Below, piece after piece: positions 2,957-58,766 of a DNA stretch of 64,000 nt; within the stretch, counting starts at the first letter, position 1; each line of letters opens with the position of its first letter. Under the pieces are notes generated by a model. That model ran no database searches. It saw only the letters and a list, made by a program, of their open reading frames with translations, and had not been told where the DNA came from. Source of the DNA: Clostridia bacterium (GTDB taxonomy: Bacteria; Bacillota; Clostridia; TANB77; CAG-508); contig CAAEUE010000014.1 in the NCBI GenBank assembly GCA_900759015.1, positions 22,904 through 86,903 of the forward strand, given 5' to 3'. Position numbers and translations under genes: made by a program.

Positions 2957-4240
2957 CTATTTTACTGTAATTTTTTCTAATCCACCCATATATGGTCTTA
3001 ATACTTCTGGAATAATTACACTTCCATCTGGTTGATAGTTATTTTCCATAATAGAAATTAGCATACGTGGTGGAGCAACAACAGTGTTGTTTAATGTATG
3101 TGCAAAATAGTTTCCTTTTTCGCCTTTTATTCTAATACCTAATCTACGAGCTTGTGCATCTGTTAAGTTAGAACAACTTCCAACTTCAAAATATTTCTTT
3201 TGTCTTGGGCTCCAAGCTTCTACATCACAAGATTTAGCTTTTAAGTCTGCTAAATCACCACTACAACATTCAAGTGTTCTTACAGGTATGTTCATACTTC
3301 TAAAGAATTCTACTGTGTATGACCACATTTTATTATACCAATCCCAAGAATCTTCTGGTTCACATACAACAATCATTTCTTGTTTTTCAAATTGGTGAAT
3401 TCTATATACACCACGTTCTTCTAGTCCATGTGCACCTTTTTCTTTTCTAAAACAAGGAGAATAAGATGTCATTGTATATGGCATATCTTCTTTTTTTAGA
3501 ATTTGACCTTTAAATTTTCCAATCATAGAATGTTCACTTGTACCAATTAAGTATAAATCTTCTCCTTCGATTTTATACATCATTGCATCCATTTCTTCAA
3601 AACTCATAACACCTGTTACTACATCACTTCTAATCATATAAGGTGGTATACAATAAGTAAAACCTTTATTAATCATGAAGTCTCTTGCATATGTTAAAAC
3701 AGCAGAATGTAATCTTGCAACATCTCCCATTAAGTAATAGAAACCTTGACCTGCAACACGTCTTGCGCTGTCTAAGTCTAATCCGCCTAAAGCTTCTAAA
3801 ATTTCACCATGGAATGGAATTTCATAATCTGGAACTACAGGTTCTCCAAATCTTTCAATTTCTACATTTTCGCTATCATCTTTTCCTATTGGAACAGACT
3901 CATGCATGATATTTGGAATTTTCATCATCCTTGTCTTAATTTCTTCTGCATATTTATTTTCTAGTGCTTCATTTTCTTCTAGTTTGCTGTTAATTTCTTG
4001 AACTTCAGCTTTTATTTTTTCTGCTTCATCTTTTTGTCCATTTCTCATTAAATTACCAATTTCAGCACTTAGTGTTTTTCTTTTATTTCTTAATTCGTCA
4101 CCAGCAAGTGTAGCTTCTCTAGATTTTTTGTCTAAATCTATAACTTCATCAACTAAAACTAGTTTTTCATCTTGAAATTTTTTCTTTATATTTTCCTTTA
4201 CAATGTCAGGATTTTCTCTTAAAAATTTAATATCTATCAT
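2957..4240 (-). CDS. serS: seryl-tRNA synthetase
   Basis: 427 aa. N-terminal coiled-coil arm and class II core motifs (FRKEKGAHG...GLxRVHQFEK-like). Standard SerRS length. Confidence 0.95.
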   Translation of the reverse strand: MIDIKFLRENPDIVKENIKKKFQDEKLVLVDEVIDLDKKSREATLAGDELRNKRKTLSAEIGNLMRNGQKDEAEKIKAEVQEINSKLEENEALENKYAEEIKTRMMKIPNIMHESVPIGKDDSENVEIERFGEPVVPDYEIPFHGEILEALGGLDLDSARRVAGQGFYYLMGDVARLHSAVLTYARDFMINKGFTYCIPPYMIRSDVVTGVMSFEEMDAMMYKIEGEDLYLIGTSEHSMIGKFKGQILKKEDMPYTMTSYSPCFRKEKGAHGLEERGVYRIHQFEKQEMIVVCEPEDSWDWYNKMWSYTVEFFRSMNIPVRTLECCSGDLADLKAKSCDVEAWSPRQKKYFEVGSCSNLTDAQARRLGIRIKGEKGNYFAHTLNNTVVAPPRMLISIMENNYQPDGSVIIPEVLRPYMGGLEKITVK

Positions 4241-5340: not shown

Positions 5341-5916
5341 ATGTTCAACAAAATCGACAAGATGTCACGCAAAGATTTGGAGGAAGCAATACGTGAGTAT
5401 AAGGATTTCTCCAAGTATAGTCGGAAAGATCTGGAGAAGGAATTAAGAGTTCTTCTTCCAGATATTAATTTGAACGAATTTTCTGACCAGGAGTTGGAAG
5501 ATTTGCTAAGAAGCAATTATACATTCGAGGACTATAGCACCGAAGAGCTTCGGGAAGAAGCAAGGAGACATGAACGCTTCGAAGAGTGGACCAGAGAGGA
5601 GCTCGAAGAAGATTATGAACAGTTAGAGCAGCCACAATCAAAGGTTGAACGATATAAGACTATAAGATGGATTCTTATAGCAGTGCTCTGTGCTTTTTTA
5701 GGATACTACTATGGAAGCATGAATACAAAGCTTGAATATCTCGAACAGAGGACCGAGCAACTGCAGCAGGAGCTTACTGTGATGGAACAGGAAAATAATC
5801 TGTTAGAAGACAGAGTTGATACTCTGTCAGATATTATAGATTTGATAATAATCTATGTAACGTCTGACGAGCTTCCGGGAGCAGAAAATCCGGGTACATC
5901 AGCACAAATCATCTAA
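5341..5916 (+). CDS. hypothetical acidic coiled-coil protein with one TM helix, 191 aa, on the higher-GC islet
   Basis: RBS GGAGG 6 nt upstream. Glu/Arg-rich N-terminal half, a TM segment IRWILIAVLCAFLGYYYG and a C-terminal leucine-heptad region. Confidence 0.55.
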   Translation: MFNKIDKMSRKDLEEAIREYKDFSKYSRKDLEKELRVLLPDINLNEFSDQELEDLLRSNYTFEDYSTEELREEARRHERFEEWTREELEEDYEQLEQPQSKVERYKTIRWILIAVLCAFLGYYYGSMNTKLEYLEQRTEQLQQELTVMEQENNLLEDRVDTLSDIIDLIIIYVTSDELPGAENPGTSAQII

Positions 5917-5940
5917 AGAACCAAAACTTCACATCTTTTT

Positions 5941-5960
5941 CCCCTGGCGAAAGCCAGGGG
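5941..5960 (+). terminator. GC-rich GNRA-tetraloop hairpin (CCCCTGGC-GAAA-GCCAGGGG) ending the islet
   Basis: Perfect 8-bp G/C stem with a GAAA loop, atypical for this AT-rich genome. A weak T-tract follows. Confidence 0.5.
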
Positions 5961-5995
5961 CATTTCCATTTTAGAGAATAAAATTTAAGAAAAAA

Positions 5996-6035
5996 CGAAA
6001 TTTTGTTTGACAAACAAAAAATCATATGATAGTAT
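5996..6035 (+). promoter_or_regulatory. lexA promoter with an overlapping degenerate Cheo/LexA box
   Basis: CGAAATTTTGTTTG (12/14 to CGAACnnnnGTTCG) overlaps TTGACA (6007-6012). A 17-nt spacer then TAGTAT (6030-6035). Confidence 0.5.
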
Positions 6036-6064
6036 GTAAAAAAATAAAGTGGAGGCGTGAACAA

Positions 6065-6706
6065 GTGAAAAAAGATAAAAGTGATTTAAATAAAAGAGAG
6101 GTAGCAATCTTAAACTTTATATCAAAACAAATAAAAGCAAACCAATATCCACCATCAGTAAGAGAAATTTGTAAAGCTGTAGGACTAAATTCAACAGCAA
6201 CAGTACATGGATATTTAGAGAAATTAGAGCAAAAAGGTTATATAAGAAAAGAATCTCAAAAAGGAAGAGCATTAAGAGTTGTTAATGAAGATGATGTTAT
6301 AAGAAAACCAAAAGATTTATATTCTGGTAAAGAATTAGTAGATGTACCAGTTGTAGGAAAAATAACTGCAGGTGCACCAATTTTAGCAGTAGAAAATATA
6401 ACAGATACTTTCCCAATTCCTTTAGACTTCGTAGGAAATTCAGAAAGCTTTATGCTAACTGTTAGAGGAGAAAGTATGATAGAAGCAGGTATTTTAGATG
6501 GTGACTATATATTAGTAAAACAACAAAATACTGCAGAAAATGGTGAAATTGTTGTAGCTTTAATAGATGACGAAGCAACAGTAAAAACATTCTATAAAGA
6601 AAAAGATTATATAAGATTACAACCAGAGAATCATACAATGGCTCCAATAATTGTTCCAGATTGTAAAATACTTGGTAAAGTAGCCGGCGTATTTAGAAAA
6701 ATGTAG
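6065..6706 (+). CDS. lexA: LexA repressor
   Basis: Winged-helix N-terminus, S24 peptidase C-terminus with Ala-Gly cleavage site (GKITAGAP), Ser (RGESM) and Lys ([12 protein letters not shown]). GTG start sits 9 nt after GGAGG. The ORF-track ATG at 6026 precedes the promoter -10. Confidence 0.9.
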
Positions 6707-6755
6707 TATAAAATAAAACAACTTAAGACATAATATATTTTAGGTGAATATATTA

Positions 6756-6920
6756 TGAAAAAAGAAAAAGAGATTAACGAAATAGAAGTTGGGGAAGATG
6801 TAAGTAGAAATGGTGAATTCATACCAACAAAATTTGCGTGGATAAGCTTAGGCTTTCAAAAAGAGAATGCAAAGCGCTTACAAAATATAACCAAAAAAGA
6901 TGATAAACATAGTAAGTAAA
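6756..6920 (+). CDS. small basic protein (54 aa) downstream of lexA
   Basis: RBS AGGTGA 7 nt upstream. MKKEKEINEIEVGEDVSRNGEFIPTKFAWISLGFQKENAKRLQNITKKDDKHSK. Not in the ORF track (under 60 aa). Confidence 0.35.
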
Positions 6921-7060
6921 TATAATAGGAATTAAATGTGGTTTTATTAGTAGAAAGGAATTTAAATTTCATTTCTGCAATTTAATAAATCCACATTTTT
7001 TACTTGAAAGACAACCTAAAAAATGATAAAATGAAAACGTTAGAAAAGGAGGAAGTAAGT

Positions 7061-7402
7061 ATGGATAGTAAAAGCAAAGAAATCTATTCTGAACTTAGTG
7101 CTTTTTTGGATAGTATAGATGAAGAAAGAAGAAACAAAATACCAGAAGACTTAAGGGAATTAATTAATAGTAAAAAAGACGATAATTATACACCTAAATA
7201 TCCAAAAGGAACTCCTTTAGAAAAATTAAAAATGAAAAAAGAAACAAAGGATATGGTTAATTTACTAAACTTTAATTATTGGTGTGAAAACGAACAACAA
7301 CGAAAAGAATTAATGGAACGAATAGCAAATGGCAAGAAAAATGAAGGGGCAAAAGTAAATGCATTCGATAAAATAAAAAATATATTTAAAAAGAAAAGCT
7401 AA
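7061..7402 (+). CDS. hypothetical protein (113 aa)
   Basis: RBS AAAGGAGG 8 nt before the ATG at 7061. The ORF-track start at 7004 lacks an RBS. Confidence 0.5.
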   Translation: MDSKSKEIYSELSAFLDSIDEERRNKIPEDLRELINSKKDDNYTPKYPKGTPLEKLKMKKETKDMVNLLNFNYWCENEQQRKELMERIANGKKNEGAKVNAFDKIKNIFKKKS

Positions 7403-9124: not shown

Positions 9125-10843
9125 TTATGCTCCTTTGCTTACGCTGTTTTGAAGTTCATATATTTTTTTATATAATTTAGAATTGTTTAATAACTCGGTA
9201 TGTGTACCAATATTTTCAATTTTTCCATTATTAAAAACTAAAATTCTAGAACAGTTTTTGATTGTAGATGTTTTTTGTGAGGCTATAAATGTTGTAATAT
9301 TATGTTCTTTAGAATACTTAAAAATATTTTGTAATACTTGTGATTCTGTATATAAATCTAATGCACTTGTAACATCATCAAAAATTAATACTTTAGGATT
9401 ACCAATAAAGCCTCTTGCAATATTTATACGTTGCTTTTGACCACCGGATAAATTAGATGCATTATTTTGTAAAACAAAGTTTAAGGTGTTTTCTTTTTGA
9501 TTAACAAATTCACTTGCATTAGAAAGCTCCAGACTTTTTTGTATTTCTTCTTTAGAAGTAACTCTACCTAAAGCAATGTTTTCAAAAATTGTAGCTGTAA
9601 TAAAATCTGGCTTTTGACCAATATATGTTATGTTAGATTTTAAAAAGTTTGAATCATATTTTCTTATATCTTCACCATATAATTTTAAGCTACCAGAAGA
9701 AATATTTAAAGAATTATTTAGTAGTCTTAAAAAAGTACTTTTCCCTGAACCTGTAAGACCGATAATACCAATAGTTTCGCCAGGTTTTATTTTTAATGAT
9801 ATATCTCTTAAATTGTTAGTAGTAAAATATGAAAAATTTACATTAGATATATCAAAAATATAGTTGTTAGGTTTAAATTCTTTAATGTTACCAGTTTGTT
9901 TATTCTCTTTTAGGTTAAATAATTCTATTATACGTTTTGAAGAAGCGAAAGCTTTTGTGTAAATTGCAACTAAGTTTGAAAGTACAACAACAGCTAATAG
10001 CATCTCAGAAATGTAATTTATTATTGCAATAATTTCACCTTTAGATAAATTTTCAAATCCAAACTCGACATTGCTTATATTCAAAACTATTAGTGTAGTA
10101 AAGTTTAAAATAAATATAGAAACAGGATTTAGTAAAAAAGATAAAATAGTTGCAAGTTTATTATAGATATATGTTAGATTATTTACTTTATCAAATTTTG
10201 TTTTTTCTGTATTTTGTGTTACAAAACTACGAATTAATTTAATATTAGTTAAGTTTTCTTTTATTCTTAAGGTTAGCTTGTCTAACTGTAAATTAGCTTT
10301 TTGATAAATTTTACTCGCAGATTTTGCAATTATCAAAATTACTAGAAATAGTATAATACTTGCTACAAGAACATTTATTGCAATTTGTATGTTTATTAAT
10401 GAAATCATAATAATTGAGCCAATAAAAATAAATGGAACTCTTATTACTAATCTTATAAACATAGCAATTCCTGTTTCTAAATTAGTAACATCATTAATAA
10501 TTCGATTTACTATGGCAGAACTACCAATGCTATTTAATTTATTAGAAGGAACTTTTTGAATATGAGCAAATAATTTTTCGCGTAAAGTTTTGCTATATCC
10601 TTGCGAAGTAATTGCAGCTATGTATTGCGCACTACAAGCGAAAATAAGTCCTAATAATACAAGTATAATTAATCCAATAGAGTAATATATAAGCTCTGTA
10701 GAAGAAAATCTATTATAATTATCAATAAAAAAGGCAATAATGATTGGCAATAGTACTTCTATTATTGCTTCTAATAATTTTAATATTGGTCCAACTATTA
10801 AATTTACTTTATATTTTTTTAAATATTTTAATAATGTCTTCAT
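9125..10843 (-). CDS. ABC transporter, fused permease/ATP-binding subunit; partner of the previous gene (heterodimeric exporter)
   Basis: TM domain followed by Walker A GLTGSGKST, signature LSGGQKQR and Walker B LIFDDVTSALD. Only 3 nt from the downstream gene. Confidence 0.85.
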   Translation of the reverse strand: MKTLLKYLKKYKVNLIVGPILKLLEAIIEVLLPIIIAFFIDNYNRFSSTELIYYSIGLIILVLLGLIFACSAQYIAAITSQGYSKTLREKLFAHIQKVPSNKLNSIGSSAIVNRIINDVTNLETGIAMFIRLVIRVPFIFIGSIIMISLINIQIAINVLVASIILFLVILIIAKSASKIYQKANLQLDKLTLRIKENLTNIKLIRSFVTQNTEKTKFDKVNNLTYIYNKLATILSFLLNPVSIFILNFTTLIVLNISNVEFGFENLSKGEIIAIINYISEMLLAVVVLSNLVAIYTKAFASSKRIIELFNLKENKQTGNIKEFKPNNYIFDISNVNFSYFTTNNLRDISLKIKPGETIGIIGLTGSGKSTFLRLLNNSLNISSGSLKLYGEDIRKYDSNFLKSNITYIGQKPDFITATIFENIALGRVTSKEEIQKSLELSNASEFVNQKENTLNFVLQNNASNLSGGQKQRINIARGFIGNPKVLIFDDVTSALDLYTESQVLQNIFKYSKEHNITTFIASQKTSTIKNCSRILVFNNGKIENIGTHTELLNNSKLYKKIYELQNSVSKGA

Positions 10844-48621: not shown

Positions 48622-48705
48622 AAAATTAAAAAAAAATGAAAAATTGTATTGACAAATTATATATAAAGGTATTATAATAAGCATTGTCAGTTGCAAGACA
48701 TTCAT

Positions 48706-48794
48706 GCAGATGTGGCGGAACTGGCAGACGCACAGGACTTAAAATCCTGCGAGGGTTAAACCTCGTGCCGGTTCGATTCCGGCCATCTGCACCA
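48706..48794 (+). tRNA. tRNA-Leu (anticodon UAA), type II with long variable arm, CCA encoded
   Basis: Acceptor gcagatg/catctgc, anticodon stem cagga/tcctg with loop cuUAAaa, variable hairpin cgagggttaaacctcg and T-arm ccggttcgattccgg. 89 nt. Confidence 0.9.
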
Positions 48795-48845
48795 AAAAAG
48801 TAATACCAAGAAGTTAAACACTTCTTTTGGTATTACTTTTTTTTT
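48795..48845 (+). terminator. terminator after tRNA-Leu
   Basis: aagtaataccaagaagtt...aacttcttggtattactt then a T9 run. Confidence 0.75.
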
Positions 48846-48876
48846 ATAATTAATATATAAAGGAGAGTGACTTCTT

Positions 48877-49149
48877 ATGATGTATCCATATGTCAAATAT
48901 TCCGATGGTACCGAAGTTACATTTTCAAGTATATATATCGATAATGACAAAGAATGTATTGATGTACATTTCGAAAGACCTACAAAAAATGGCTTTGATT
49001 CTGTTAGAATAAAATTGCCTACTTATGAAGTAACAGTTTGGGAAGGTAAATATAATGCAGAAGAAATAGAATTTTTTAAGCAAGTTGCAAAGAATAATTC
49101 GGATTTGTTTTATAAGTATGCAAAAGAGGGAGGTTTTAAATTTGCCTAG
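48877..49149 (+). CDS. hypothetical protein (90 aa)
   Basis: RBS AAGGAGAG. No motif recognised. Confidence 0.45.
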   Translation: MMYPYVKYSDGTEVTFSSIYIDNDKECIDVHFERPTKNGFDSVRIKLPTYEVTVWEGKYNAEEIEFFKQVAKNNSDLFYKYAKEGGFKFA

Positions 49150-49408
49150 TATTTTTGAAGTCTTCGGATAAAAAATATATTTTGGGTCAAATGAAAATAA
49201 TGAACCTATTCATGTTCATATTTCAAAAGGAAGTCCAACTCAAAATTCTACTAAAGTTTGGTTAACCCAAACAGGTGGATGCATATTAGCTAATAATAAA
49301 AGTAAAATTCCAGATAGTGATTTAAATAAATTATTAAGTATAATTTCTAGACATTACTTTTTAATTATTTCAAAGTGGAAAGAATTTTATAAAATTAATG
49401 ATATATAA
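49142..49408 (+). pseudogene. DUF4160-family gene with an in-frame TAA at codon 10
   Basis: TTG-start MPSIFEVFG*KIYFGSNENNEPIHVHISKG... matches the DUF4160 N-terminal pattern (..YFYSNE.NEPPHIHV..). There is no ATG downstream of the stop in frame. Confidence 0.55.
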
Positions 49409-49648
49409 GGATATTAAATTTTATTGCTAAAATGATTATAAACCTACCATTAAAAGGTAGTTTTTTTTGTGTGTCAAAATCAGGAGGAAAAGACAGACTC
49501 GCTTATTGGATAGTCTTAAAAGTGAAGTTCACTAAACAATAGAGAAAATATTGAAAAAGTAGATAATTAAAAATATATATGATAATATTTTAGTATAGAA
49601 TATTAATAAAAAGAAATTGATCAAACGATGATTGATAATGGAGAAAGT

Positions 49649-51532
49649 ATGGATTTTTTGATTGAAGAAGTAGTAAAAGAACTAAAAAAAATAAATAATG
49701 TAAAATTAACACAAAAAGACAAGAATAAAATTTATAAAAATTTTCCTATTCCAAAAGAACATAAAATTTTATGGGCAGATACTATTGGAAAAAGTATGAA
49801 ATATGGAATGGTCATTACTGATATAGGGCTATTTTTAAGAACAAATCCTACTATTATTAAGAAAAATAATAAAGAAGTAAAAAAAGAAGAAAAGGTAGCC
49901 AATAACTACTATTATTTTAAATGGGAATATTTTAATATAGAAGATTTTAAATTAAAAAGAAACTCTGAAAATGAATATGATGTTATATTTAATAGAAGAA
50001 GAATCCTAGAGATAAATGGTAAATCTAATTTTTTTATATGCTATGAAGATATTTATAATAAATCAATAAAAGAAGCAACAATGTCAGCAGAAAATATTTT
50101 TGCAGATTTAGAAGCGGTTATCCCTGAAAATTTTGCAAGAGTCAATAGCAAGCATGGTCATGGAGAGATGGCAGAAGAAGCACTAACCATATTAGATAAA
50201 TTAAAAGGGAATGAAGCAGAAGTAGTAGGCAGAACAAATCAAAAGAATGGTGCAGATCGTATTGTAAATGGTTTAGAGATTCAAACTAAATATTATAGTT
50301 CTGGAAAAGGATGTATAAATGCGTGTTTTGACAAGACAACAGGACAATTTAGGTATCAAAAATTAAATGGTAAGCCAATGCTAATAGAAGTACCAAAAGA
50401 TAAGTATATAGAGGCTGTTAATGAATTTAGAAAAAAGATTCTAGAGAACAAGGTACCAGGAGTAACAAATCCAGATGATGCCTCAAAATATGTTAAAAAA
50501 GGACAATTAACATATAAACAGGCTCTTAATCTTTGTAAACCAGGAACTATAGAATCCTTAAAATATGATGTTACAACTGGAGCAATAAATTGTTCTTTTG
50601 CTCTAGGAATAAGTTTTTTAACAACTTTCATTTTTGCATATTCAAAAAATAATAATAAAATAGAAGCAATGCAATATGCAATTGCTTCTGGAGTTCAAGT
50701 ATTTGGGTTATCATTTTTTGCACATATACTTACACAACAAGTTGCTAGGACAGAATTAACAAAACAACTTATACCATTAAGTAATTATATTGCACAAAAA
50801 ATGGGATATAAAGCAGTGCAAACTATTGTAAATTCAATTCGTACAATGGCTGGAAAAACAGCAATTTCTGGCTCAGCTGCTATGAAACAATTATCAAAGA
50901 TATTTAGAAATAATGTAGTTTCTTCTATCATTACTTTGGCAGTATTTTCTGTCCCTGATACATATAACTTATTAAAAAAGAGGTTATCAGCTGCACAATA
51001 TACAAAAAATATGCTTTCGTTAGTTGGAACGATTGCAACCGCTGGTTCTGGCACTGTAGCAGCATCTGTTGCTGCCACCAAAATAGGTGCAGTAACAGGA
51101 ACTACAATTGCTCCTGGAATAGGAACTGCTATTGGTATTGCAGGTGGACTTGCTGGAGGAGTAGCTGGTGGTGTAGCTATTAAAGCATTAGGAGATTATA
51201 TTAAGGAAGATGATACAGTAATTTTGTCGAGACTATTTAATGCTGTTGTAGAAAATCTAATATATGAATATATGTTATCAGAAAGTGAAATTAATGAACT
51301 AATAAAAGAATTAAACAATATAACAGCAAAAGAATTCAAAGAATTATTTACTGTAGTTATGGCTATAAGAAAACAAGAAAAAATTATTGAAGATTATTTA
51401 AGACCTTATTTTGAAAAGATAATACGAAAGAGAGCAGTTTTACCAGAACCAAAGCCAGAAGATATTATTGGATTTTTTGAAAAGTTCGAGAATGATAACA
51501 ACCTAAATAATGAAGAAAAGACCCCTAATTGA
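49649..51532 (+). CDS. large uncharacterised protein (627 aa): PH-like N-terminal domain, central globular domain, glycine-zipper multi-TM region, C-terminal helical tail
   Basis: RBS GGAGAAAG before the ATG at 49649. N-terminus KILWADTIGKSMKYGMVITDIGLFLR resembles bacterial PH domains. Residues ~330-530 carry 4-5 TM helices with GxxxG repeats (GIAGGLAGGVAGGVA). Confidence 0.6.
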   Translation: MDFLIEEVVKELKKINNVKLTQKDKNKIYKNFPIPKEHKILWADTIGKSMKYGMVITDIGLFLRTNPTIIKKNNKEVKKEEKVANNYYYFKWEYFNIEDFKLKRNSENEYDVIFNRRRILEINGKSNFFICYEDIYNKSIKEATMSAENIFADLEAVIPENFARVNSKHGHGEMAEEALTILDKLKGNEAEVVGRTNQKNGADRIVNGLEIQTKYYSSGKGCINACFDKTTGQFRYQKLNGKPMLIEVPKDKYIEAVNEFRKKILENKVPGVTNPDDASKYVKKGQLTYKQALNLCKPGTIESLKYDVTTGAINCSFALGISFLTTFIFAYSKNNNKIEAMQYAIASGVQVFGLSFFAHILTQQVARTELTKQLIPLSNYIAQKMGYKAVQTIVNSIRTMAGKTAISGSAAMKQLSKIFRNNVVSSIITLAVFSVPDTYNLLKKRLSAAQYTKNMLSLVGTIATAGSGTVAASVAATKIGAVTGTTIAPGIGTAIGIAGGLAGGVAGGVAIKALGDYIKEDDTVILSRLFNAVVENLIYEYMLSESEINELIKELNNITAKEFKELFTVVMAIRKQEKIIEDYLRPYFEKIIRKRAVLPEPKPEDIIGFFEKFENDNNLNNEEKTPN

Positions 51533-51557
51533 ATCAAATTTCAATTAGGGGTTTAAC

Positions 51558-52007
51558 TTACATTCCTAATTCTTTTAGTATTTGCTTATTCTGTTTTGTA
51601 GCAGGCCAAGAAATTGTAAAAAATAATATAAAAAATATAACAACTAAAACCAAACCAATAATTGTGCTATAACGCATTATAGCTAAAGACTCAAAAAGCG
51701 CTATTACAATAGCATAAATTTTTCTATAATTTTTTACAAGAATTTGTTTTTGTTCATCTGAAGCTTTTTCTTTAACTTTTTTAGCTAATAGAATATCTGG
51801 TTTAGCCAAACTGATTATTAAAATTATTATTAAAAATAAATCTAACACAATATTTCCTCCTTTATTAATTTTATTTAATATATCATAAGAAAATACCATA
51901 GACAATATTAATACAAAATAAGTAAGATTATTTGCTACTTTTTTGCTTTTTCTTAATAAATATGCTATAATAAAGTTTGAGAAACTCGTAGACTTTTTAC
52001 ATTGCAC
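51558..52007 (-). CDS. hypothetical 4-TM membrane protein (start uncertain)
   Basis: Hydrophobic helices. Convergent with the large protein. Confidence 0.4.
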   Translation of the reverse strand: MQCKKSTSFSNFIIAYLLRKSKKVANNLTYFVLILSMVFSYDILNKINKGGNIVLDLFLIIILIISLAKPDILLAKKVKEKASDEQKQILVKNYRKIYAIVIALFESLAIMRYSTIIGLVLVVIFFILFFTISWPATKQNKQILKELGM

Positions 52008-52040
52008 ATTAAGTGCAAATGATTAGCAGGAGGAAGAAAT

Positions 52041-52406
52041 ATGAGAGAAGTATTAGCAGAAGCAAATGTAGTAGAAACAATGCGGAAAGTGATTGTTGAA
52101 TGCATTCGGGACAACGAATGTGAGAACACGCAAATTTGGCTTAATGATGAAGTAGTAAAGAAACTTCAGGATGCCCAGATTTATGGAACGATTAATTATC
52201 CTTATGAAGGATATACTATGTTGGCTTTTGAACTCAGGACGGGAGAAAAAATGGAAATAACATACAACAGGGAAAAAAGTATTGCTCTAAAAAATTGGCA
52301 TAATGCATGGAGTAACCTGAATGTTATTAAATACGTATATTTTCCGGATTCCAAAGAATATTTCTTCTTTGGAGCTACAGAGGAGAAGATTTTAGTAATT
52401 AAATAA
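52041..52406 (+). CDS. hypothetical protein (121 aa) with locally elevated GC
   Basis: RBS AGGAGGAAG. GC clearly above flanks. Followed by a non-canonical hairpin catggctttcctac...gtaggggagccatg (52410-52455). Confidence 0.5.
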   Translation: MREVLAEANVVETMRKVIVECIRDNECENTQIWLNDEVVKKLQDAQIYGTINYPYEGYTMLAFELRTGEKMEITYNREKSIALKNWHNAWSNLNVIKYVYFPDSKEYFFFGATEEKILVIK

Positions 52407-52477
52407 TTAATCTCATGTTTCGTACATGGCTTTCCTACATAAAAGTAGGGGAGCCATGTGTTAGTTTGCATAAAAGA

Positions 52478-54010
52478 TTAAGGCAAATCTATCTTTAAAT
52501 GTTCGTTTTTCAAATCTTTTAATTTATTATTTATACGATTAGCAATATTATCATTATAATTACTATGGTTTTCTATCAAATTAATATAATAATTTAATTT
52601 TTTTAAATAATTTTCTGAATTATTATTTGTTAAATATAAATCATAATAAATATAAATCAATTCCTCTAAAGATTCAATAAGCTCATCAGAAGATTCTTCA
52701 AGCAAAGAAATAGCTTTGGTTAAATCTTTATGAATTCCAATTTCTAAACAACCATCTTTATAAAAATATTTTGCTAAATTATATTTAGACCAATTACACA
52801 AAGTAAATTTTGGTGATTCGCTAGACAAAGTGTAGTAATCAAAAGCTTTTTGTAAATTTATATTTCCTATTTTTCCTAGTCTGTAAAATTCACCAACTCT
52901 ATTTTGACCCCAACTATCACCTAAATTAGCAGATTTCATATAATAATCAAAAGCAAGTTTTAAGTCATTTTGAGCCTCGTAGATTTTGCCAAGATTATTA
53001 AACGCATATACATGTCCCATATCTGCCGCAATTTTAAACATTTCAATTGCTTTTTCTTCGTTCTTAGAAATATGGGGAATAGTACCACAAAGTAGTATAT
53101 TACCAATACTTGTGTAAGCATTAGCACAATTTAGTTTCCTAGCTTTGTTAAAATATTTTAAAGCTAAATACATATCATGTTTAGATTTAGTGCCAATATG
53201 CCCTTCATAATATAAATAACCAATAGCCCAATTAGCTGTTGGATGATTAGCCTTTGCAGCGACTTGATAGTAATCATAAGCTTTTTCATATCTAGCTTTT
53301 CCAGTTATAATTCCATAACATTCCATAGAAGCCATCTCAAAACATGCGAAAGGATTACCATGCCTTGCTAATTCATAAATGCCTCTAATAGACCAAATAC
53401 CAGAAGTTAATTGGATATTAATAAAATCTTCAATATCATTTACAGAAATATTTGTATCATATATTTTCTTTTCAATTATATTATTTAAATTTTCGTCAAT
53501 ATAAATAGGTTGTTTTTTATCTAAAACAGTATAAAATAAGACTTCTGCGATAAAATTATATAAATCGTTATTAGTTAAATTTGAGTATAAACGATTAGAA
53601 AGATTAGTTGTAATATCCGAGTCATTTTTACTAATAGAATATAGTCGCGTACAAATATGACGCATTTTTTCATTTGTATTAAAAATATTAATTGTAATTT
53701 TTGCTGGAACATTAATATCTATTAATTTTAATATTTCCGAAAAAATAGGGAGTAAGGCGTTAGGATTTTGTATATATTTACTTTTTAAATTTTTAATATA
53801 ATTTTTATAAGTAGAATTAATAGCCCTAAAACCTGTACAATAATTATTAACAGTACTATCTGCAATTGAATCTGTATTAAAAATTATAGAGAATAAATCT
53901 GCTTGCCAAAAGCTTGCAGAATTATTACTTTCTTCTTTTAAAATTCTAAAAAAATTACCAAAAGATAAATAATTATCATTTATATTTAAACGAATAAAAT
54001 TCTTTTTCAT
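52478..54010 (-). CDS. Sel1/TPR-like repeat protein (510 aa) with a ~200-aa unknown N-terminal domain
   Basis: At least six Sel1-like repeats (AxxxLGxxYxxG.. A..WY.KAA patterns) in the C-terminal 300 aa. Confidence 0.65.
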   Translation of the reverse strand: MKKNFIRLNINDNYLSFGNFFRILKEESNNSASFWQADLFSIIFNTDSIADSTVNNYCTGFRAINSTYKNYIKNLKSKYIQNPNALLPIFSEILKLIDINVPAKITINIFNTNEKMRHICTRLYSISKNDSDITTNLSNRLYSNLTNNDLYNFIAEVLFYTVLDKKQPIYIDENLNNIIEKKIYDTNISVNDIEDFINIQLTSGIWSIRGIYELARHGNPFACFEMASMECYGIITGKARYEKAYDYYQVAAKANHPTANWAIGYLYYEGHIGTKSKHDMYLALKYFNKARKLNCANAYTSIGNILLCGTIPHISKNEEKAIEMFKIAADMGHVYAFNNLGKIYEAQNDLKLAFDYYMKSANLGDSWGQNRVGEFYRLGKIGNINLQKAFDYYTLSSESPKFTLCNWSKYNLAKYFYKDGCLEIGIHKDLTKAISLLEESSDELIESLEELIYIYYDLYLTNNNSENYLKKLNYYINLIENHSNYNDNIANRINNKLKDLKNEHLKIDLP

Positions 54011-54064
54011 ATATAACCTCCAATAAATATATAAACATTATATTTACATAATATATAAAAGTCA

Positions 54065-54110
54065 ATATAAAAATGTGAAATAAACGTGAAACAAAATAAA
54101 AAACGTGAAA
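54065..54110 (+). promoter_or_regulatory. three direct repeats of ACGTGAAA/TGTGAAA upstream of the hydrolase gene
   Basis: aaaaaTGTGAAAtaaACGTGAAAcaaaataaaaaACGTGAAAaag with 10-11 and 17 nt spacing. Candidate regulator binding site. Confidence 0.3.
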
Positions 54111-54177
54111 AAGTATGAGTTGATATTAGCATACAATAAAATATAGAATAGTAAAAAATAATAAGGAGCTGATTAAT

Positions 54178-54939
54178 ATAAATATTTTAGGATTAAATAT
54201 TAATTACATAGAGCAAGGTGAAGGGGACAACGTCTTAATTTTACCTGGTTGGGGAACAAATTATAATGTATATAAAAATTTAATAGACAATATTTCTAAA
54301 TATGCAAAAGTATATTATTTTGATATGCCAGGTTTTGGAAAATCAGAAGAGCCAAAAGAAGCATGGAATACAGATAATTTTATAGAATTAGTAAAAGAAT
54401 TTATTAAAATAAATAAAATAGATAATATAACATTAATAGGACATTCAAATGGTGGAAGAATTGCAATAAAAATGTTAAGTGAAGGAAATTTAGAATTTAA
54501 AGTACGAAGGTTAATTTTAATAGGAAGTGCAGGAATAGTTCATAAAAAAACAGCAAAACAAAAGGCAAAAATGTCTATAGTAAAATTGGGTAAAAAAGTA
54601 TTAAATACGGGAATTGCAAAAAAAATTGCACCAAATGCGCTAGAAAATTTAAAGAAAAAAATGGGATCAGTGGATTATCGTAATGCAACACCTGTTATGA
54701 GAAATACATTAGTAAAATTAGTAAATGAAGATTTAAAAGATAGACTACCAAAAGTAAATGTTCCAACATTACTATTATGGGGAGAAAATGACACAGAAAC
54801 ACCATTTGATGATGCTAAAATCATGGAAAAAGAAATACCAAATGCAGGGTTAGTACCTTTTAAGGGGTGTTCTCATTATGTGTTTTTAGAAAGACCTGTA
54901 CAAATAAATAATATAATTAAAAATTTTATGGGAAAATAA
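54178..54939 (+). CDS. alpha/beta hydrolase whose expected start codon reads ATA
   Basis: Open frame encodes (M)NILGLNINYIEQGEGDNVLILPGWG...GHSNGG (nucleophile elbow)...catalytic H near the C-terminus. AAGGAG lies 9 nt upstream of ATA at 54178. The first ATG (54325) would delete the oxyanion-hole HG motif. Confidence 0.6.
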   Translation: MNILGLNINYIEQGEGDNVLILPGWGTNYNVYKNLIDNISKYAKVYYFDMPGFGKSEEPKEAWNTDNFIELVKEFIKINKIDNITLIGHSNGGRIAIKMLSEGNLEFKVRRLILIGSAGIVHKKTAKQKAKMSIVKLGKKVLNTGIAKKIAPNALENLKKKMGSVDYRNATPVMRNTLVKLVNEDLKDRLPKVNVPTLLLWGENDTETPFDDAKIMEKEIPNAGLVPFKGCSHYVFLERPVQINNIIKNFMGK

Positions 54940-54954
54940 ATTTGGAGGATATTT

Positions 54955-56499
54955 ATGAAGATAATAATTATAATAGAACTTATTATAAATTATATATTAT
55001 TGCTAATATTTAACACACATATGTTACAACTAAATTCATATTTCTTCTTAAAACATTTTAAATGGATGAGAAAAAATATAAAGAAATTATTATTACAACT
55101 AATTTTAGTAATACCAACAATATTAATATATCTTAATAATACCATATTAAATATAGCTATAATAATTATTTTAGGAATTTCAATAATATATAATATTCCA
55201 AAAAGAAATTCAAAAATATCATTAAAATATACTGGTAGAGTAAAAAGATTAATATTTACAGATATGCTAATATCACTATTAATTTTATTTGTTGGAAGAA
55301 TACAAAATTATATAATAACTAAATTAATAATTATAAATGTATTTGCAAATATGCTAATAATATTATCAAATTTAGTAAATCACCCTATAGAAATGTTAGG
55401 AAGAAAGAGATACATAAACGATGCAAAAAGAATATTAAACGAAATGCCAAATTTACTAGTTATAGGAATAACAGGAAGTTATGGAAAAACTAGTATGAAA
55501 AATTTTTTGTATAGTTTATTATCAGAAAAATATGATGTTTTAAAAACTCCAAAAAACTATAATACAACAATGGGAGTTGTAAAAACTATAAGAGAGGAAT
55601 TAAAGCCAACTCATCAAATATTTTTGTGTGAGATGGGAGCAACAAATGTTGGTGATATTAAAGAAATATGTGATATTGTAAATCCAAAATTAGGAGTAAT
55701 TACATCTATAGGACCACAACACTTAGAAAGTTTTAAAAGCATAGAAAATATAATAAAAACTAAATTTGAATTGGCAGACAGTGTAAAACAAAATAATGGA
55801 ACCATATTTTTAAATTATGATAATGAATATATAAAAAATAAAGAATTAGATATGAACAAGATAACATATGGAGTAAATGATAAATCACTAGATTATAATT
55901 CATATGATTTAGAATCTTCTAATAAAGGATTAAGATTTAAAATTCTAGATAAAGAAACTAATGAGGAAAAAGAATTAAAAACAAAATTAATAGGAAGGCA
56001 TAACATTGTAAACATTACGGGAGCAATAGCTGTGGCAGATTATTTAAAAGTTCCGATGAAAAAAATTGTGGTAAAAGTAAGAGAAATACAAAATGTAAAA
56101 CATAGGTTAGAATTATTGCCAAAAGGTAATATTGCAATAATAGATGATTCGTATAATGCAAACCCTATAAGTTCGAAATCAGCGGTTGATACATTAGGAG
56201 AATTTAAAGGAATAAAGATAATAGTTACTCCAGGTCTTATAGAACTTGGTAAAGAACAAGAAAAATATAACTATGAATTTGGAAAATACATGGCGGATGT
56301 TTGTGATTATATTTTCTTAGTTGGAACAGATAATTACGAAGCCATACTTAAAGGAATAAAAGAAAAAAATTATGATGAACAAAAAGTATTTAAGGTGAAT
56401 TTGCCACAAGAAGCTGTTAGTCAAATTATAAGTTGGAATTTAAAAGAAGAAGTAATAGTCTTATTGGAAAATGATTTACCAGATAATTATAATTTATAA
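54955..56499 (+). CDS. murF: UDP-MurNAc-tripeptide--D-Ala-D-Ala ligase (MurF)-like enzyme with a ~150-aa polytopic membrane N-terminal extension
   Basis: P-loop GITGSYGKTS, central Mur ligase motifs and C-terminal IDDSYNANP...TPGLIELG. The N-terminal 150 aa are 4 hydrophobic helices in place of the usual soluble MurF N-domain. RBS GGAGG. Confidence 0.7.
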   Translation: MKIIIIIELIINYILLLIFNTHMLQLNSYFFLKHFKWMRKNIKKLLLQLILVIPTILIYLNNTILNIAIIIILGISIIYNIPKRNSKISLKYTGRVKRLIFTDMLISLLILFVGRIQNYIITKLIIINVFANMLIILSNLVNHPIEMLGRKRYINDAKRILNEMPNLLVIGITGSYGKTSMKNFLYSLLSEKYDVLKTPKNYNTTMGVVKTIREELKPTHQIFLCEMGATNVGDIKEICDIVNPKLGVITSIGPQHLESFKSIENIIKTKFELADSVKQNNGTIFLNYDNEYIKNKELDMNKITYGVNDKSLDYNSYDLESSNKGLRFKILDKETNEEKELKTKLIGRHNIVNITGAIAVADYLKVPMKKIVVKVREIQNVKHRLELLPKGNIAIIDDSYNANPISSKSAVDTLGEFKGIKIIVTPGLIELGKEQEKYNYEFGKYMADVCDYIFLVGTDNYEAILKGIKEKNYDEQKVFKVNLPQEAVSQIISWNLKEEVIVLLENDLPDNYNL

Positions 56500-56556
56500 A
56501 TATCTTAAGCTAAACGAAATATTCATAAAGAGTTTAAAGGAAGGTAGGTAATTTTT

Positions 56557-57747
56557 ATGAAAATTAAATTAGGTGTTTTCTTTGGTGGAAAGAGTGTTGA
56601 ACATGAAGTGTCTATAATAACTGCACTTCAAGCAATAGAAAATATGAATAAGGAAAAATATGATATTGTACCAATATATATTGCAAAAGATAATAAAATG
56701 TATTGTGGAGACTTTGTTGATGATATAAAACAATACACAAATATAGAGAATTTAAAAAGAATAAGTACACAAGTAACTCTTTCATTAAAGGATAATAAAA
56801 CAGTTTTATTAAGAACAAATAAGAAATTTTACGAAAATGAAGTTTATGACTATATAGATGTTGCATTCCCTATTGTTCATGGTACAAATGTAGAAGATGG
56901 TACACTTCAAGGATATTTAAAAATGTTTAATTTACCATATGTTGGATGCGATGTTACATCATCTGCAGTTGGAATGGATAAATATGTTTCTAAAACAATT
57001 TTAAAAGAAAACAATATTCCTGTTTTAGACTGCAAATGTTATTATAAAAATGAAGAAGTAGAAGATATAGTAAAAAGTGTTGAAGCTAATATAGAATATC
57101 CTGTAATTGTTAAACCAATCAATTTAGGATCAAGTATTGGAATAGTTGTTGCAAAAAATAGAGAAGAATTAGAAGAGGCAATAGAAGATGCATTTACATA
57201 TGCGAGAAAGATTTTAATAGAAAAAGCTATAAAGAATTTAAAAGAAGTAAATTGCTCTGTTCTAGGTGATTACGAAGAATGTAATGCCTCAGAATGTGAA
57301 GAATTAGATAAAACATCAGATATTTTATCATATGAAGATAAATATATATCAGGAGGTAAAAAAACAGGCGGAGCTAAACAATCTATGAATGCAGGAGTAT
57401 TAAAATTACCAGCAGATATAAGTAAAGAATTAAAAGAAAGAATTCAAACTTTAGCAAAAGAAACATTTAAAATATTAGGTTGCACAGGAGTAATACGTAT
57501 AGACTTTTTAATTGATGAAGATACAGATAATGTATATGTAAACGAGGTAAATACTATTCCTGGTTGTTTATCTTTCCATCTATGGAGAGCAGTAGGAATG
57601 GAATATCCAGAGTTATTAGATAAAGAAATCGAATTAGCATTAAAAAGAAATCGTGAAGAAAATAATATGGTATTTTCTTTTGACACAAATGTATTAGAAG
57701 GATATGCAAATGGCGGACTTAAAGGTGGAAAAGGAAAATTGGCCTAA
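56557..57747 (+). CDS. ddl: D-alanine--D-alanine ligase (long form, 396 aa)
   Basis: KIKLGVFFGGKSVEHEVS N-terminus and an ATP-grasp core with a C-terminal extension. Confidence 0.9.
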   Translation: MKIKLGVFFGGKSVEHEVSIITALQAIENMNKEKYDIVPIYIAKDNKMYCGDFVDDIKQYTNIENLKRISTQVTLSLKDNKTVLLRTNKKFYENEVYDYIDVAFPIVHGTNVEDGTLQGYLKMFNLPYVGCDVTSSAVGMDKYVSKTILKENNIPVLDCKCYYKNEEVEDIVKSVEANIEYPVIVKPINLGSSIGIVVAKNREELEEAIEDAFTYARKILIEKAIKNLKEVNCSVLGDYEECNASECEELDKTSDILSYEDKYISGGKKTGGAKQSMNAGVLKLPADISKELKERIQTLAKETFKILGCTGVIRIDFLIDEDTDNVYVNEVNTIPGCLSFHLWRAVGMEYPELLDKEIELALKRNREENNMVFSFDTNVLEGYANGGLKGGKGKLA

Positions 57748-57749
57748 AT

Positions 57750-57776
57750 GAACTTTTAGGACGGAGCTTAAAGTTC
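57750..57776. repeat. GGGACG-loop palindromic repeat (GAACTTT stem variant)
   Basis: gaacttttaggacggagcttaaagttc. Confidence 0.7.
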
Positions 57777-57799
57777 AAAAGTTGCGAGAAAATTAGAAA

Positions 57800-57842
57800 A
57801 ATAAAGCCCCCTGTTACCAGAAAGGTAATGGGGGCTTCATTG
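57800..57842 (-). terminator. GC-rich terminator for the 57891 gene
   Basis: aagcccccat...gggggctt stem with a T-run on the minus strand. Confidence 0.6.
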
Positions 57843-57890
57843 GTTTTGCTAAATTAGCACTCGCCATCGGTGGTGGCTTAACATAAGAGT

Positions 57891-58661
57891 TTAAAATACA
57901 AAATAGACGATACTGTTTTTTTGGTCATAAGTAAGTGAAGTCACTTTAGTACAAGCAGTTTGATTTGCAAGATAATCCATATATTGATAGCTTGTAGCTA
58001 TATTAGACAAATATGAAGGATCTGCTAAAAATGCTTCATGGTCTTTGCTTATCTGAGCTAAGACCTTTAAAGCTTCTTCATCTGTAAACTTTTTTGTGAA
58101 ACATTTACAGATATTTTTAGGAAGCCCAGTAGAAGACATAAATAACTTTAATTTCCTTGTATATTCTGCTTTAGCAGTGGCAATATTTACCATAATATAC
58201 TTTCGGTTTTTCTTGTTATTTCCTTCAATACGAAGTTCCCACGTATCATCGATTTCATAGACCACGAGATGAGAACCATAATATTTTAAGTTAACGGTTT
58301 TATACTCCGTTCCAATTTGACTTACTACAAATTCTGTTGTTTCAACATCGTGAACAATTCGTTCTCTTAGAATTGCCATTTCTTTTGCAGCTTTTTCTTT
58401 AGATATAACCTGCGTTACATCTTCTGTTTTTTGATCCTTTAAATGTAAGCAGTGTCTGTGAAAAGCAATTAACGAACTTGAAGGAGATACTTCCTTTTCT
58501 TTTCTTATCTTGTCGCTTTTGGTAACAATGTAGATATCTTCTGGGTTAAGAATATTTACAAGATAATAGTAAACTTTGCCATTATCTTCTATTATATAAA
58601 TATCACCAGAAATTGAGCCTACATATTCTGACCGTCCTTTACCTAAAAATACTTTCTCCAT
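57891..58661 (-). CDS. hypothetical protein (256 aa), moderately elevated GC
   Basis: Long ORF with no motif recognised. Flanked by the repeat and the GC-rich terminator. Confidence 0.5.
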   Translation of the reverse strand: MEKVFLGKGRSEYVGSISGDIYIIEDNGKVYYYLVNILNPEDIYIVTKSDKIRKEKEVSPSSSLIAFHRHCLHLKDQKTEDVTQVISKEKAAKEMAILRERIVHDVETTEFVVSQIGTEYKTVNLKYYGSHLVVYEIDDTWELRIEGNNKKNRKYIMVNIATAKAEYTRKLKLFMSSTGLPKNICKCFTKKFTDEEALKVLAQISKDHEAFLADPSYLSNIATSYQYMDYLANQTACTKVTSLTYDQKNSIVYFVF

Positions 58662-58766
58662 AAAACCCCTTTCTAATCAATTGATTACCATAAATTAAAC
58701 AGTTGCTAAATTGCTTTATAGGTTGTATTATAATATGAATATATAATTTTAGTAAAGAGGTAGGAA

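Follow-up and report, generated by a model that had tools for sequence, protein, structure and literature searches.

The window analyzed here, a 64,000-nucleotide stretch of contig CAAEUE010000014.1 of a Clostridia bacterium, encodes next to tRNA-Leu(UAA), its sole tRNA gene as found by ARAGORN, a 627-amino acid (aa) protein that, judging from profile comparisons, almost certainly belongs to the YeeR family (PF27347). The gene is a self-contained module within a strain-variable cargo slot, and the 3' flank of the tRNA gene is, beyond reasonable doubt, a hotspot of recombination and integration with a distinct allele structure. The YeeR_C domain of the protein probably adopts a PD-(D/E)xK-like nuclease fold, as structural models suggest, and is followed by a predicted membrane module. 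The YeeR family is catalogued but functionally blank, and the window protein is a further member of it. The original prediction, made from the letters of the segment 48706–54010, had left the domain combination of the protein unassigned, which the family assignment supersedes.

The maximal open reading frame (ORF), 49628–51532, codes for 634 aa. The true start is most likely the ATG at 49649, because it is preceded by a GGAG motif 7 nt upstream and because both the homologues and the gene calls are 627 aa long. A large protein database contains more than 780 homologues at 40–95% identity with precomputed PF27347 (YeeR_C) matches, including those at 91–95% identity. A profile built from 38 homologues aligned in hhalign with residues 370–508 of Escherichia coli K-12 YeeR, corresponding to residues ~160–270 of the 627-aa protein, with a probability of 99.8% (E 5e-28, 42% identity). 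Alignments by tblastn to intact E. coli copies span query residues 132–455, first membrane helices included. Pfam (a set without the PF27347 model), NCBIfam, PADLOC and PHROGs yielded no meaningful match to the 627-aa protein, the threshold of the PADLOC-DB v2 scan being E ≤ 0.1. Matches to tape-measure PHROGs were rejected as compositional, caused by the glycine-rich helices.

A scan of 1.84 billion representatives for the YeeR_C domain retrieved 830 representative clusters (50% identity) at E ≤ 1e-3, and residue conservation was derived from the best 148 of the 830. Among these 148 representatives the length preceding YeeR_C is variable, with modes at ~20–60, 150–220 and 380–450 aa, while that following it is mostly 280–360 aa. 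Since the lengths vary before the domain and are steady after it, the conserved core of the family is formed by YeeR_C together with the membrane module, preceded by an exchangeable N-terminus. The alternative N-termini recognized by Pfam in 72 scanned members comprise Sel1 repeats (one protein, E 3.3e-22), an FGE-sulfatase domain (one protein, E 1.1e-15) and Zn-ribbons (several proteins).

The homologue in E. coli, YeeR (b2001), is encoded by the cryptic prophage CP4-44 of strain K-12, with intact copies in islands of uropathogenic (UPEC) and enteroaggregative (EAEC) strains. It shares with the window protein a homologous YeeR_C domain, a similarity running into the first membrane helices and a location on integrative elements at tRNA-linked islands. 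The two differ at the N-terminus, where E. coli YeeR has ~370–410 unrelated residues in place of the 150-aa PH-like domain, and in gene arrangement, since E. coli yeeR forms an operon with agn43 and irmA and the gene for the 627-aa protein stands alone. The K-12 protein is truncated right after YeeR_C (PMC6480617). Transcription of yeeR together with agn43 and irmA is subject to OxyR/Dam phase variation and H-NS/Hha repression (PMC4807369, PMC6480617), and the protein is still described as "uncharacterized" (PMC4807369). No function has been reported in the literature for YeeR, PF27347 or DUF6861.

AlphaFold2 (AF2) models were obtained for the full-length protein, with a predicted local distance difference test score (pLDDT) of 61, and for residues 1–305 refolded alone (pLDDT 82). 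The N-terminal domain is modeled as two helices, a seven-stranded PH-like sandwich and a long helix. The modeled fold has a "Bacterial PH domain protein" as its top BFVD match (E 5e-3, probability 0.91), and in the PDB it matches PH and FERM-F3 domains, all at E ≥ 0.1, among them the PH domain of ASAP1 (E 0.11). The model resembles the bacterial PH-like (bPH) domains in the seven-stranded sandwich with a helix cap and differs from them in that the protein has no match to Pfam bPH families at E ≤ 0.1. The PH-like domain that the original prediction had placed here is plausible at the fold level only. The motif GIAGGLAGGVAGGVA, which the prediction had quoted, is present, as is the charged C-terminal tail, with 16 K+R and 24 D+E in residues 515–627.

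The membrane module starts ~15 residues past YeeR_C and comprises, by hydropathy, about five moderately hydrophobic helices, the last of which holds the glycine zipper GIGTAIGIAGGLAGGVAGGVA. The transmembrane (TM) and glycine-zipper columns are conserved across the family. As neither a signal peptide nor a hydrophobic segment precedes residue ~310, the PH-like and YeeR_C domains should be cytoplasmic.

In the model of YeeR_C (pLDDT 82) the chain forms an alpha-beta-beta-beta-alpha-beta core, with helices at residues 170–185 and 219–224 and strands at 190–192, 204–206, 209–213 and 245–248; residues 170–265 make up an alpha-beta-beta-beta-alpha-beta-alpha unit. Residues G201, D203, Q212, K214, Y236, E247 and P249, all found in the window protein, are invariant in the 148 representatives. 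E176 is conserved at 0.99, and E176, D183, G194 and D251 are all conserved at 0.97 or above. In the model helix 1 contains E176, strand 2 opens with D203, and Q212-x-K214 belongs to strand 3. Such a geometry is that of PD-(D/E)xK nucleases, in the D...QxK variant that occurs in Mrr.

The closest named folds are those of minimal PD-(D/E)xK nucleases. Structure prediction and a Foldseek search of this middle domain, proposed along with the original prediction, returned nuclease-type matches at scores below significance: I-Ssp6803I and Hjc in the PDB (probability 0.57–0.72, all E ≥ 0.1), and PD(D/E)XK, VRR-NUC and Holliday-junction-resolvase proteins in BFVD (probability up to 0.99, E ≥ 0.05). 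When compared by hhalign with a 121-sequence Mrr_cat alignment (E 0.22), the local alignment sets D203 and QxK on the Asp and QAK of Mrr, so that the motifs are in register although the score is below significance. Alignments of the 148-sequence YeeR_C set with single E. coli Mrr and McrC sequences fell in the wrong regions. YeeR_C shares with Mrr (PF04471), Hjc and I-Ssp6803I the predicted core, the helix-1 acid, the strand-2 Asp and the strand-3 (E/Q)xK. It differs from them in an additional beta-hairpin insertion, the invariant E247-V-P249 and the fused membrane module.

Comparison of the regions downstream of tRNA-Leu among strains, also suggested with the original prediction, delimited the variable slot to 48800–51543. 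The 32 conspecific loci used (designated here by L numbers, as are the other loci with homologues) were collected by exact look-up of the rubrerythrin whose gene lies 0.7 kb upstream and by a scan of metagenome contigs with the tRNA-adjacent 124-aa protein, and were mapped onto the window by tblastn and blastn. The window DNA is that of a low-GC gut Clostridium (G+C ~27.6%), and its positions 48781–57779 match a metagenome-assembled genome of an uncultured human-gut Clostridium sp. (L005) at 98.3%. The flanks are conserved up to 48800, 6 nt past the tRNA, and again from 51543 in at least 20 strains. Presence/absence variation affects only the segment in between, with the 90-aa gene, the DUF4160 pseudogene and the 627-aa gene, so that the latter is accessory in the species, as had been supposed. 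Because the tRNA terminator hairpin is common to only some of the alleles, it already lies within the variable zone.

Elements bearing integrases occupy the slot in 13 of the 32 loci. Among them are a prophage whose integrase has 453 aa and an island of 8 kb whose integrase has 432 aa; three or more further integrase types are also represented. The island of locus L018 has at its far end a 67-bp perfect direct repeat of the 3' part of the tRNA, equivalent to window positions 48734–48800, and the island of L035 has a 62-bp one. Since both islands end in such repeats, the 3' part of tRNA-Leu is a genuine attachment (att) site, and its last 59–67 nt are used by the integrative elements of other strains. 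This establishes the tRNA-Leu 3' flank as the island integration site that the original prediction took it for.

Cargo without an integrase is found in the slot in at least six alleles, the alternative alleles amounting overall to at least eight. They comprise a 312-aa gene alone (10 loci), genes for 387, 185 and 312 aa together (3 loci), a DUF2806 gene (2 loci) and a near-empty deletion derivative of the 312-aa allele (one locus, L054). The window arrangement also occurs in L027, L028 and L005, and exact look-up of the 90-aa protein finds it on 8 contigs. None of the alternative cargo genes matches PADLOC, and the small cargo genes match no known defence family. Integrase-mediated insertion and the swapping of integrase-less cargo occur side by side at one site, and the locus is a clear natural instance of a tRNA hotspot in a gut Clostridium that is abundant. 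Neither the island nor the Sel1-repeat gene beyond it is remarkable, and the hotspot too is ordinary, though well documented.

Several alleles merit description in their own right. L054 retains at 3032–3126 about seven first codons of the 312-aa gene, fused directly to the terminator of that gene; these remnants point to a deletion from the common 312-aa allele and not to a pristine empty site. The island at 10458–19251 of L035 contains a partial tRNA-Leu (positions 1–40), a second full tRNA-Leu (97%), the integrase and the 62-bp att repeat, and the element apparently comes with a tRNA copy of its own. The 8-kb integrase island of L018 (11440–19320) encodes a HEPN_Cthe2314 protein and an LRP1-like beta-propeller protein; its PADLOC matches to CARF-HEPN models are faint only.

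The window allele is an integrase-less 2.7-kb cargo of two independent modules, one consisting of the 90-aa gene and the DUF4160 pseudogene, the other of the self-contained YeeR-family gene with its own upstream region and terminator. Homology of L001 to the window begins at 49505 and ends at the hairpin, its large gene being 91% identical and its upstream genes different; because the homology spans this interval only, the large gene and its upstream region form a module apart from the 90-aa/DUF4160 pair. L001 also carries, at 5412–7223, a gene whose 603-aa product is nucleotidyltransferase-like in its N-terminus (Aminoglyc_resit, E 5e-5); its insertion point coincides with the hairpin junction downstream of the YeeR-like gene. 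The 90-aa ORF of the original prediction is present and is found only together with the window-type allele. The DUF4160 gene is inactivated by the in-frame stop as described: with the stop masked, the frame scores 46.6 bits (E 4e-12) against PF13711, the cut-off of which is 23 bits. In the sister strain L005 codon 10 is TAT (Tyr) and the frame is open, while L027 and L028 share the TAA, which indicates that the nonsense mutation is recent.

The absence of an integrase noted in the original prediction holds, since no recombinase or integrase gene is present in 48795–54010 according to the ORF list and a Pfam scan. The direct repeat of the tRNA 3' end that was to be sought did not turn up in the window: a 25-mer with up to 3 mismatches matches the tRNA alone, and a repeat search extended to 54400 returned AT-rich chance repeats and no att-like repeat. 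The slot does not stand out in composition (GC 0.278, with 0.276 for the window as a whole), and the YeeR-family gene has a third-position GC content (GC3) of 0.139, compared to 0.11–0.14 in host genes; only the 121-aa gene of the flank deviates. Most likely the cargo would have been gained, or left behind, by homologous exchange between conserved flanks, with the tRNA on the left and, on the right, the hairpin together with the genes for 96 and 121 aa; site-specific integration of the window cargo is less likely. The locus shares with known tRNA-linked islands a slot adjoining the 3' end of a tRNA, its use in other strains by a prophage and by several types of integrase, the 62–67-bp att duplications and the exchangeable cargo. 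The window allele differs from them in lacking an integrase and an att repeat and in its host-like composition.

The original prediction had extended the island to 54010. An old degraded island covering the whole of 48795–54010, the 96-aa, 121-aa and Sel1 genes included, and deprived of its integrase and right attachment site (attR), would agree with the foreign composition of the 121-aa gene (GC3 0.31), a lineage-restricted orphan, with the much greater divergence of 51543–52441 (71–89% identity) than of the backbone, and with the match of the Sel1 repeats to the phage family phrog_8741 (E 1.5e-26). This has little chance of being correct, given that the Sel1 gene is found in every conspecific locus without a large insertion at 95–98% aa identity, that it still adjoins the hydrolase gene in the sister lineage L059 at 82% identity, that its GC3 of 0.137 equals that of host genes and that no att repeat exists anywhere up to 54400. 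Presence/absence variation stops at 51543, and the Sel1 gene is backbone. Accessory status holds for 48800–51543, is arguable for 51543–52441 and fails for the Sel1 gene.

Elsewhere, genes of the YeeR family sit singly in mobile elements, and their association with such elements is observed directly; no partner gene is conserved across the contexts compared. The homologue in L002 lies between genes for NikA-like and MobC relaxosome accessory proteins, beside an integrase, and another is found beside genes for an integrase, an OLD nuclease and a NUDIX protein. The L021 homologue adjoins PcfJ and Rep3, the L024 homologue adjoins a DNA methyltransferase and DUF4314, and one more adjoins serine recombinases and a Y-family polymerase. 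A Clostridia island (L032) carries its copy with KAP NTPase, WYL, AbiH and MobL genes, a temperate Oscillospirales phage has one between endolysin and recombinase genes, and on a conjugative Lactococcus plasmid (L034) the gene follows a WYL regulator. A gene for a WYL regulator immediately precedes the YeeR-like gene in both L032 (5239–6156) and L034 (4964–5848), two contexts that are not related to each other.

In the mechanism proposed here, YeeR_C would be a PD-(D/E)xK-type (Mrr/Hjc-like, D...QxK) phosphodiesterase at the inner face of the membrane and the N-terminal domain would act as a sensor or targeting module. The target would be nucleic acid entering at the membrane, by phage injection or conjugative entry, which would be attacked or excluded, and the protein would be a single-gene conflict factor in the service of the mobile elements on which its gene resides. 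The full chain, a membrane-tethered nuclease-like conflict or exclusion factor, is put forward tentatively, as a serious possibility that falls somewhat short of probable, and a defence or exclusion role as such is held with slightly less assurance. It is more doubtful still that the family represents an unrecognized class of single-gene immunity or exclusion systems, in which a membrane-tethered nuclease with swappable N-terminal sensors destroys incoming nucleic acid; in that case the sensors may be the PH-like, Zn-ribbon, Sel1, FGE-sulfatase and 400-aa E. coli types.

Known superinfection-exclusion proteins, such as Imm and Sp of T4, lactococcal Sie2009 and Ltp of Streptococcus thermophilus, are membrane proteins of prophages or plasmids. 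The likeness lies in single genes for membrane proteins on mobile elements, and the phage copy of the YeeR-like gene holds a "moron" position between lysis and recombination modules. The exclusion role of the YeeR family is putative, and these proteins have no sequence or fold relationship to it and no enzyme-like cytoplasmic domain.

A number of observations weigh against the proposed mechanism. No nuclease match is statistically significant (Foldseek E ≥ 0.1 in the PDB and ≥ 0.05 in BFVD, hhalign E 0.22 with Mrr_cat), the Pfam scan of 72 diverse family members yields no nuclease family, and PDB sequence and profile searches with the 627-aa protein were empty. Of the four to five TM helices with GxxxG zippers initially claimed, the zipper and about five moderately hydrophobic segments were recovered; two segments only pass a strict hydropathy threshold, and the membrane region is poorly modeled (pLDDT <50). 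In L029 the homologue lies between clpX and htrA, in a purely chromosomal setting where no mobile-element genes are seen. Few homologues occur in sequenced phages (1 of 50,697 records) or plasmids (10 of 72,556 records, several of them mislabelled chromosomes). Neither the 627-aa protein nor the alternative cargo of the slot matches PADLOC. E. coli yeeR is transcribed along with agn43 and irmA, and no defence phenotype has been reported (PMC4807369, PMC6480617).

Among other explanations, that of the original prediction, a pore-forming abortive-infection effector, would use the PH-like domain or a ligand-binding, non-nuclease YeeR_C to sense infection, and its glycine-zipper helices would oligomerize into a depolarizing pore. 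The GxxxG zipper is conserved family-wide, weak matches to DUF6861, C19orf12, DUF1269 and Gly-zipper_Omp recur in the Pfam scan of the family, one homologue is named "glycine zipper family protein" by PGAP, and the genes are single, on mobile elements, with N-terminal domains that vary as sensors would. The strictest invariants, however, are the polar E/D/QxK/E set of YeeR_C, which looks catalytic rather than merely ligand-binding; the protein has no PADLOC match, and pore formation is compatible with a nuclease role rather than exclusive of it. This pore model is considered unlikely, and for an abortive-infection or defence reading the genomic contexts are circumstantial evidence.

The protein could instead serve the life cycle of its own element, by processing or anchoring DNA at the membrane in conjugative transfer or establishment, or by excluding only related elements from entry. 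The positions between NikA-like and MobC genes beside an integrase (L002), beside PcfJ and Rep3 (L021) and beside DUF4314 and a methyltransferase, an arrangement typical of integrative and conjugative elements (L024), would fit such a role, as would the copy on the conjugative Lactococcus plasmid. This is improbable in view of the window and L029 copies, which stand alone without transfer genes, of the copy in a tailed phage, and of a gene order relative to transfer genes that is not conserved. A membrane factor modulating adhesin display or surface properties, without any role for nucleic acids, is very improbable: the co-transcription of agn43, yeeR and irmA in E. coli points in this direction (PMC4807369, PMC6480617), but the release of IrmA is independent of YeeR or Ag43 (PMC4807369), no autotransporter or adhesin genes adjoin the homologues in the ~10 Firmicute contexts, and most of the protein is predicted to lie in the cytoplasm, as it has no signal peptide and its first hydrophobic helix begins at about residue 310.

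The reading as a membrane-tethered nuclease-like factor offers a concrete and falsifiable hypothesis for the family, with the invariant D...QxK and E placed on a nuclease-like core at the membrane and preceded by variable N-terminal modules. A protein that had seemed unassignable now belongs to a catalogued family, and because copies exist in E. coli K-12 and, intact, in uropathogenic strains, the family is easy to test. If the hypothesis is true, a function would be given to yeeR, a long-standing "y-gene" transcribed with antigen 43, and a membrane-tethered nuclease would join the conflict systems carried by mobile elements. Apart from this testable catalytic hypothesis, the analysis provides the family assignment, corrected island limits and the removal of a supposed partner gene.

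Table 1. Features at and around the tRNA-Leu(UAA) slot (coordinates of the window)
Feature	Coordinates	Strand	Remarks
Sigma-70 promoter of tRNA-Leu	48649–48678	+	consensus TTGACA-18-TATAAT, 12/12
tRNA-Leu(UAA)	48706–48794	+	ARAGORN; Rfam 59 bits
tRNA terminator hairpin	48794–48842	+	16-nt perfect arms
Strain-variable cargo slot	48800–51543	unstranded	presence/absence polymorphism; 32-locus comparison
90-aa protein	48877–49149	+	overlaps DUF4160 start
DUF4160 pseudogene	49142–49408	+	TAA at codon 10
Terminator-like hairpin and T-run	49444–49460	+	between DUF4160 and YeeR modules
YeeR-family protein, 627 aa	49649–51532	+	intact, stand-alone
N-terminal domain, residues 1–150	49649–50098	+	AF2, pLDDT ~85
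YeeR_C domain, residues 160–295	50126–50533	+	candidate PD-(D/E)xK-type active site
Membrane module, residues ~310–515	50576–51193	+	ends in glycine zipper
Charged helical C-terminal tail, residues 516–627	51194–51529	+	
Hairpin, 13-bp stem	51521–51552		overlaps stop codon of 627-aa gene; right slot junction
96-aa small membrane protein	51558–51848	-	GTG 51848 behind AAGGAGG
121-aa protein	52041–52406	+	lineage-restricted orphan, divergent flank
Sel1-repeat protein, 510 aa	52478–54010	-	conserved backbone

Beyond the slot, the 96-aa and 121-aa genes (51543–52441) occur in all strains, with 71–89% nucleotide identity to L012 compared to 94–100% from the Sel1 gene onward. The convergent 149-aa protein with four TM helices of the original prediction is the maximal ORF only. 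The form supported by a ribosome-binding site, which is also the one called by gene callers in L001, L012 and L027, has 96 aa and two to three hydrophobic segments. Its role as a partner of the 627-aa protein, suggested at the same time, was rejected, since the gene belongs to the flank, accompanies other cargo too and has no homologue beside other YeeR-like genes; the 96-aa gene that neighbours the homologue in L029 is not related to it (16% identity). The 90-aa, 96/149-aa and Sel1 proteins have no PADLOC match at E ≤ 0.1.

The 121-aa ORF is indeed higher in GC (0.339, GC3 0.31 against 0.11–0.14 in its neighbours), as first observed. Its protein forms 15 clusters without a Pfam domain and exists in two allele classes among conspecific strains, with 69–74% and 93–100% aa identity to the window. 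The frame stays open among strains, and substitutions fall preferentially at third codon positions. A structured RNA in this region was rejected on account of this bias and because Rfam finds the tRNA only. The related strain L001 lacks the 121-aa gene.

The Sel1 repeats recognized earlier in the 510-aa protein are borne out by PF08238 (69.4 bits with a cut-off of 30.7, E 2.6e-19), at least three repeats lying in residues ~240–445 and the N-terminal 230 aa having no domain assignment. The adjoining alpha/beta hydrolase gene (54169–54939), which precedes murF, is complete, encodes 256 aa and begins with a start codon other than ATG. Truncation of its N-terminus by the island was rejected, as the frame is open upstream and only the 204-aa ATG form looks truncated. 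Downstream of ddl, a segment of ~900 bp (57779–58692) contains an ORF on the minus strand (57891–58661) for a 256-aa protein. This segment is absent from L005 and L012 and present in L011, L016, L019 and L020, and so forms a further presence/absence polymorphism, located 4 kb away from the slot at the tRNA.

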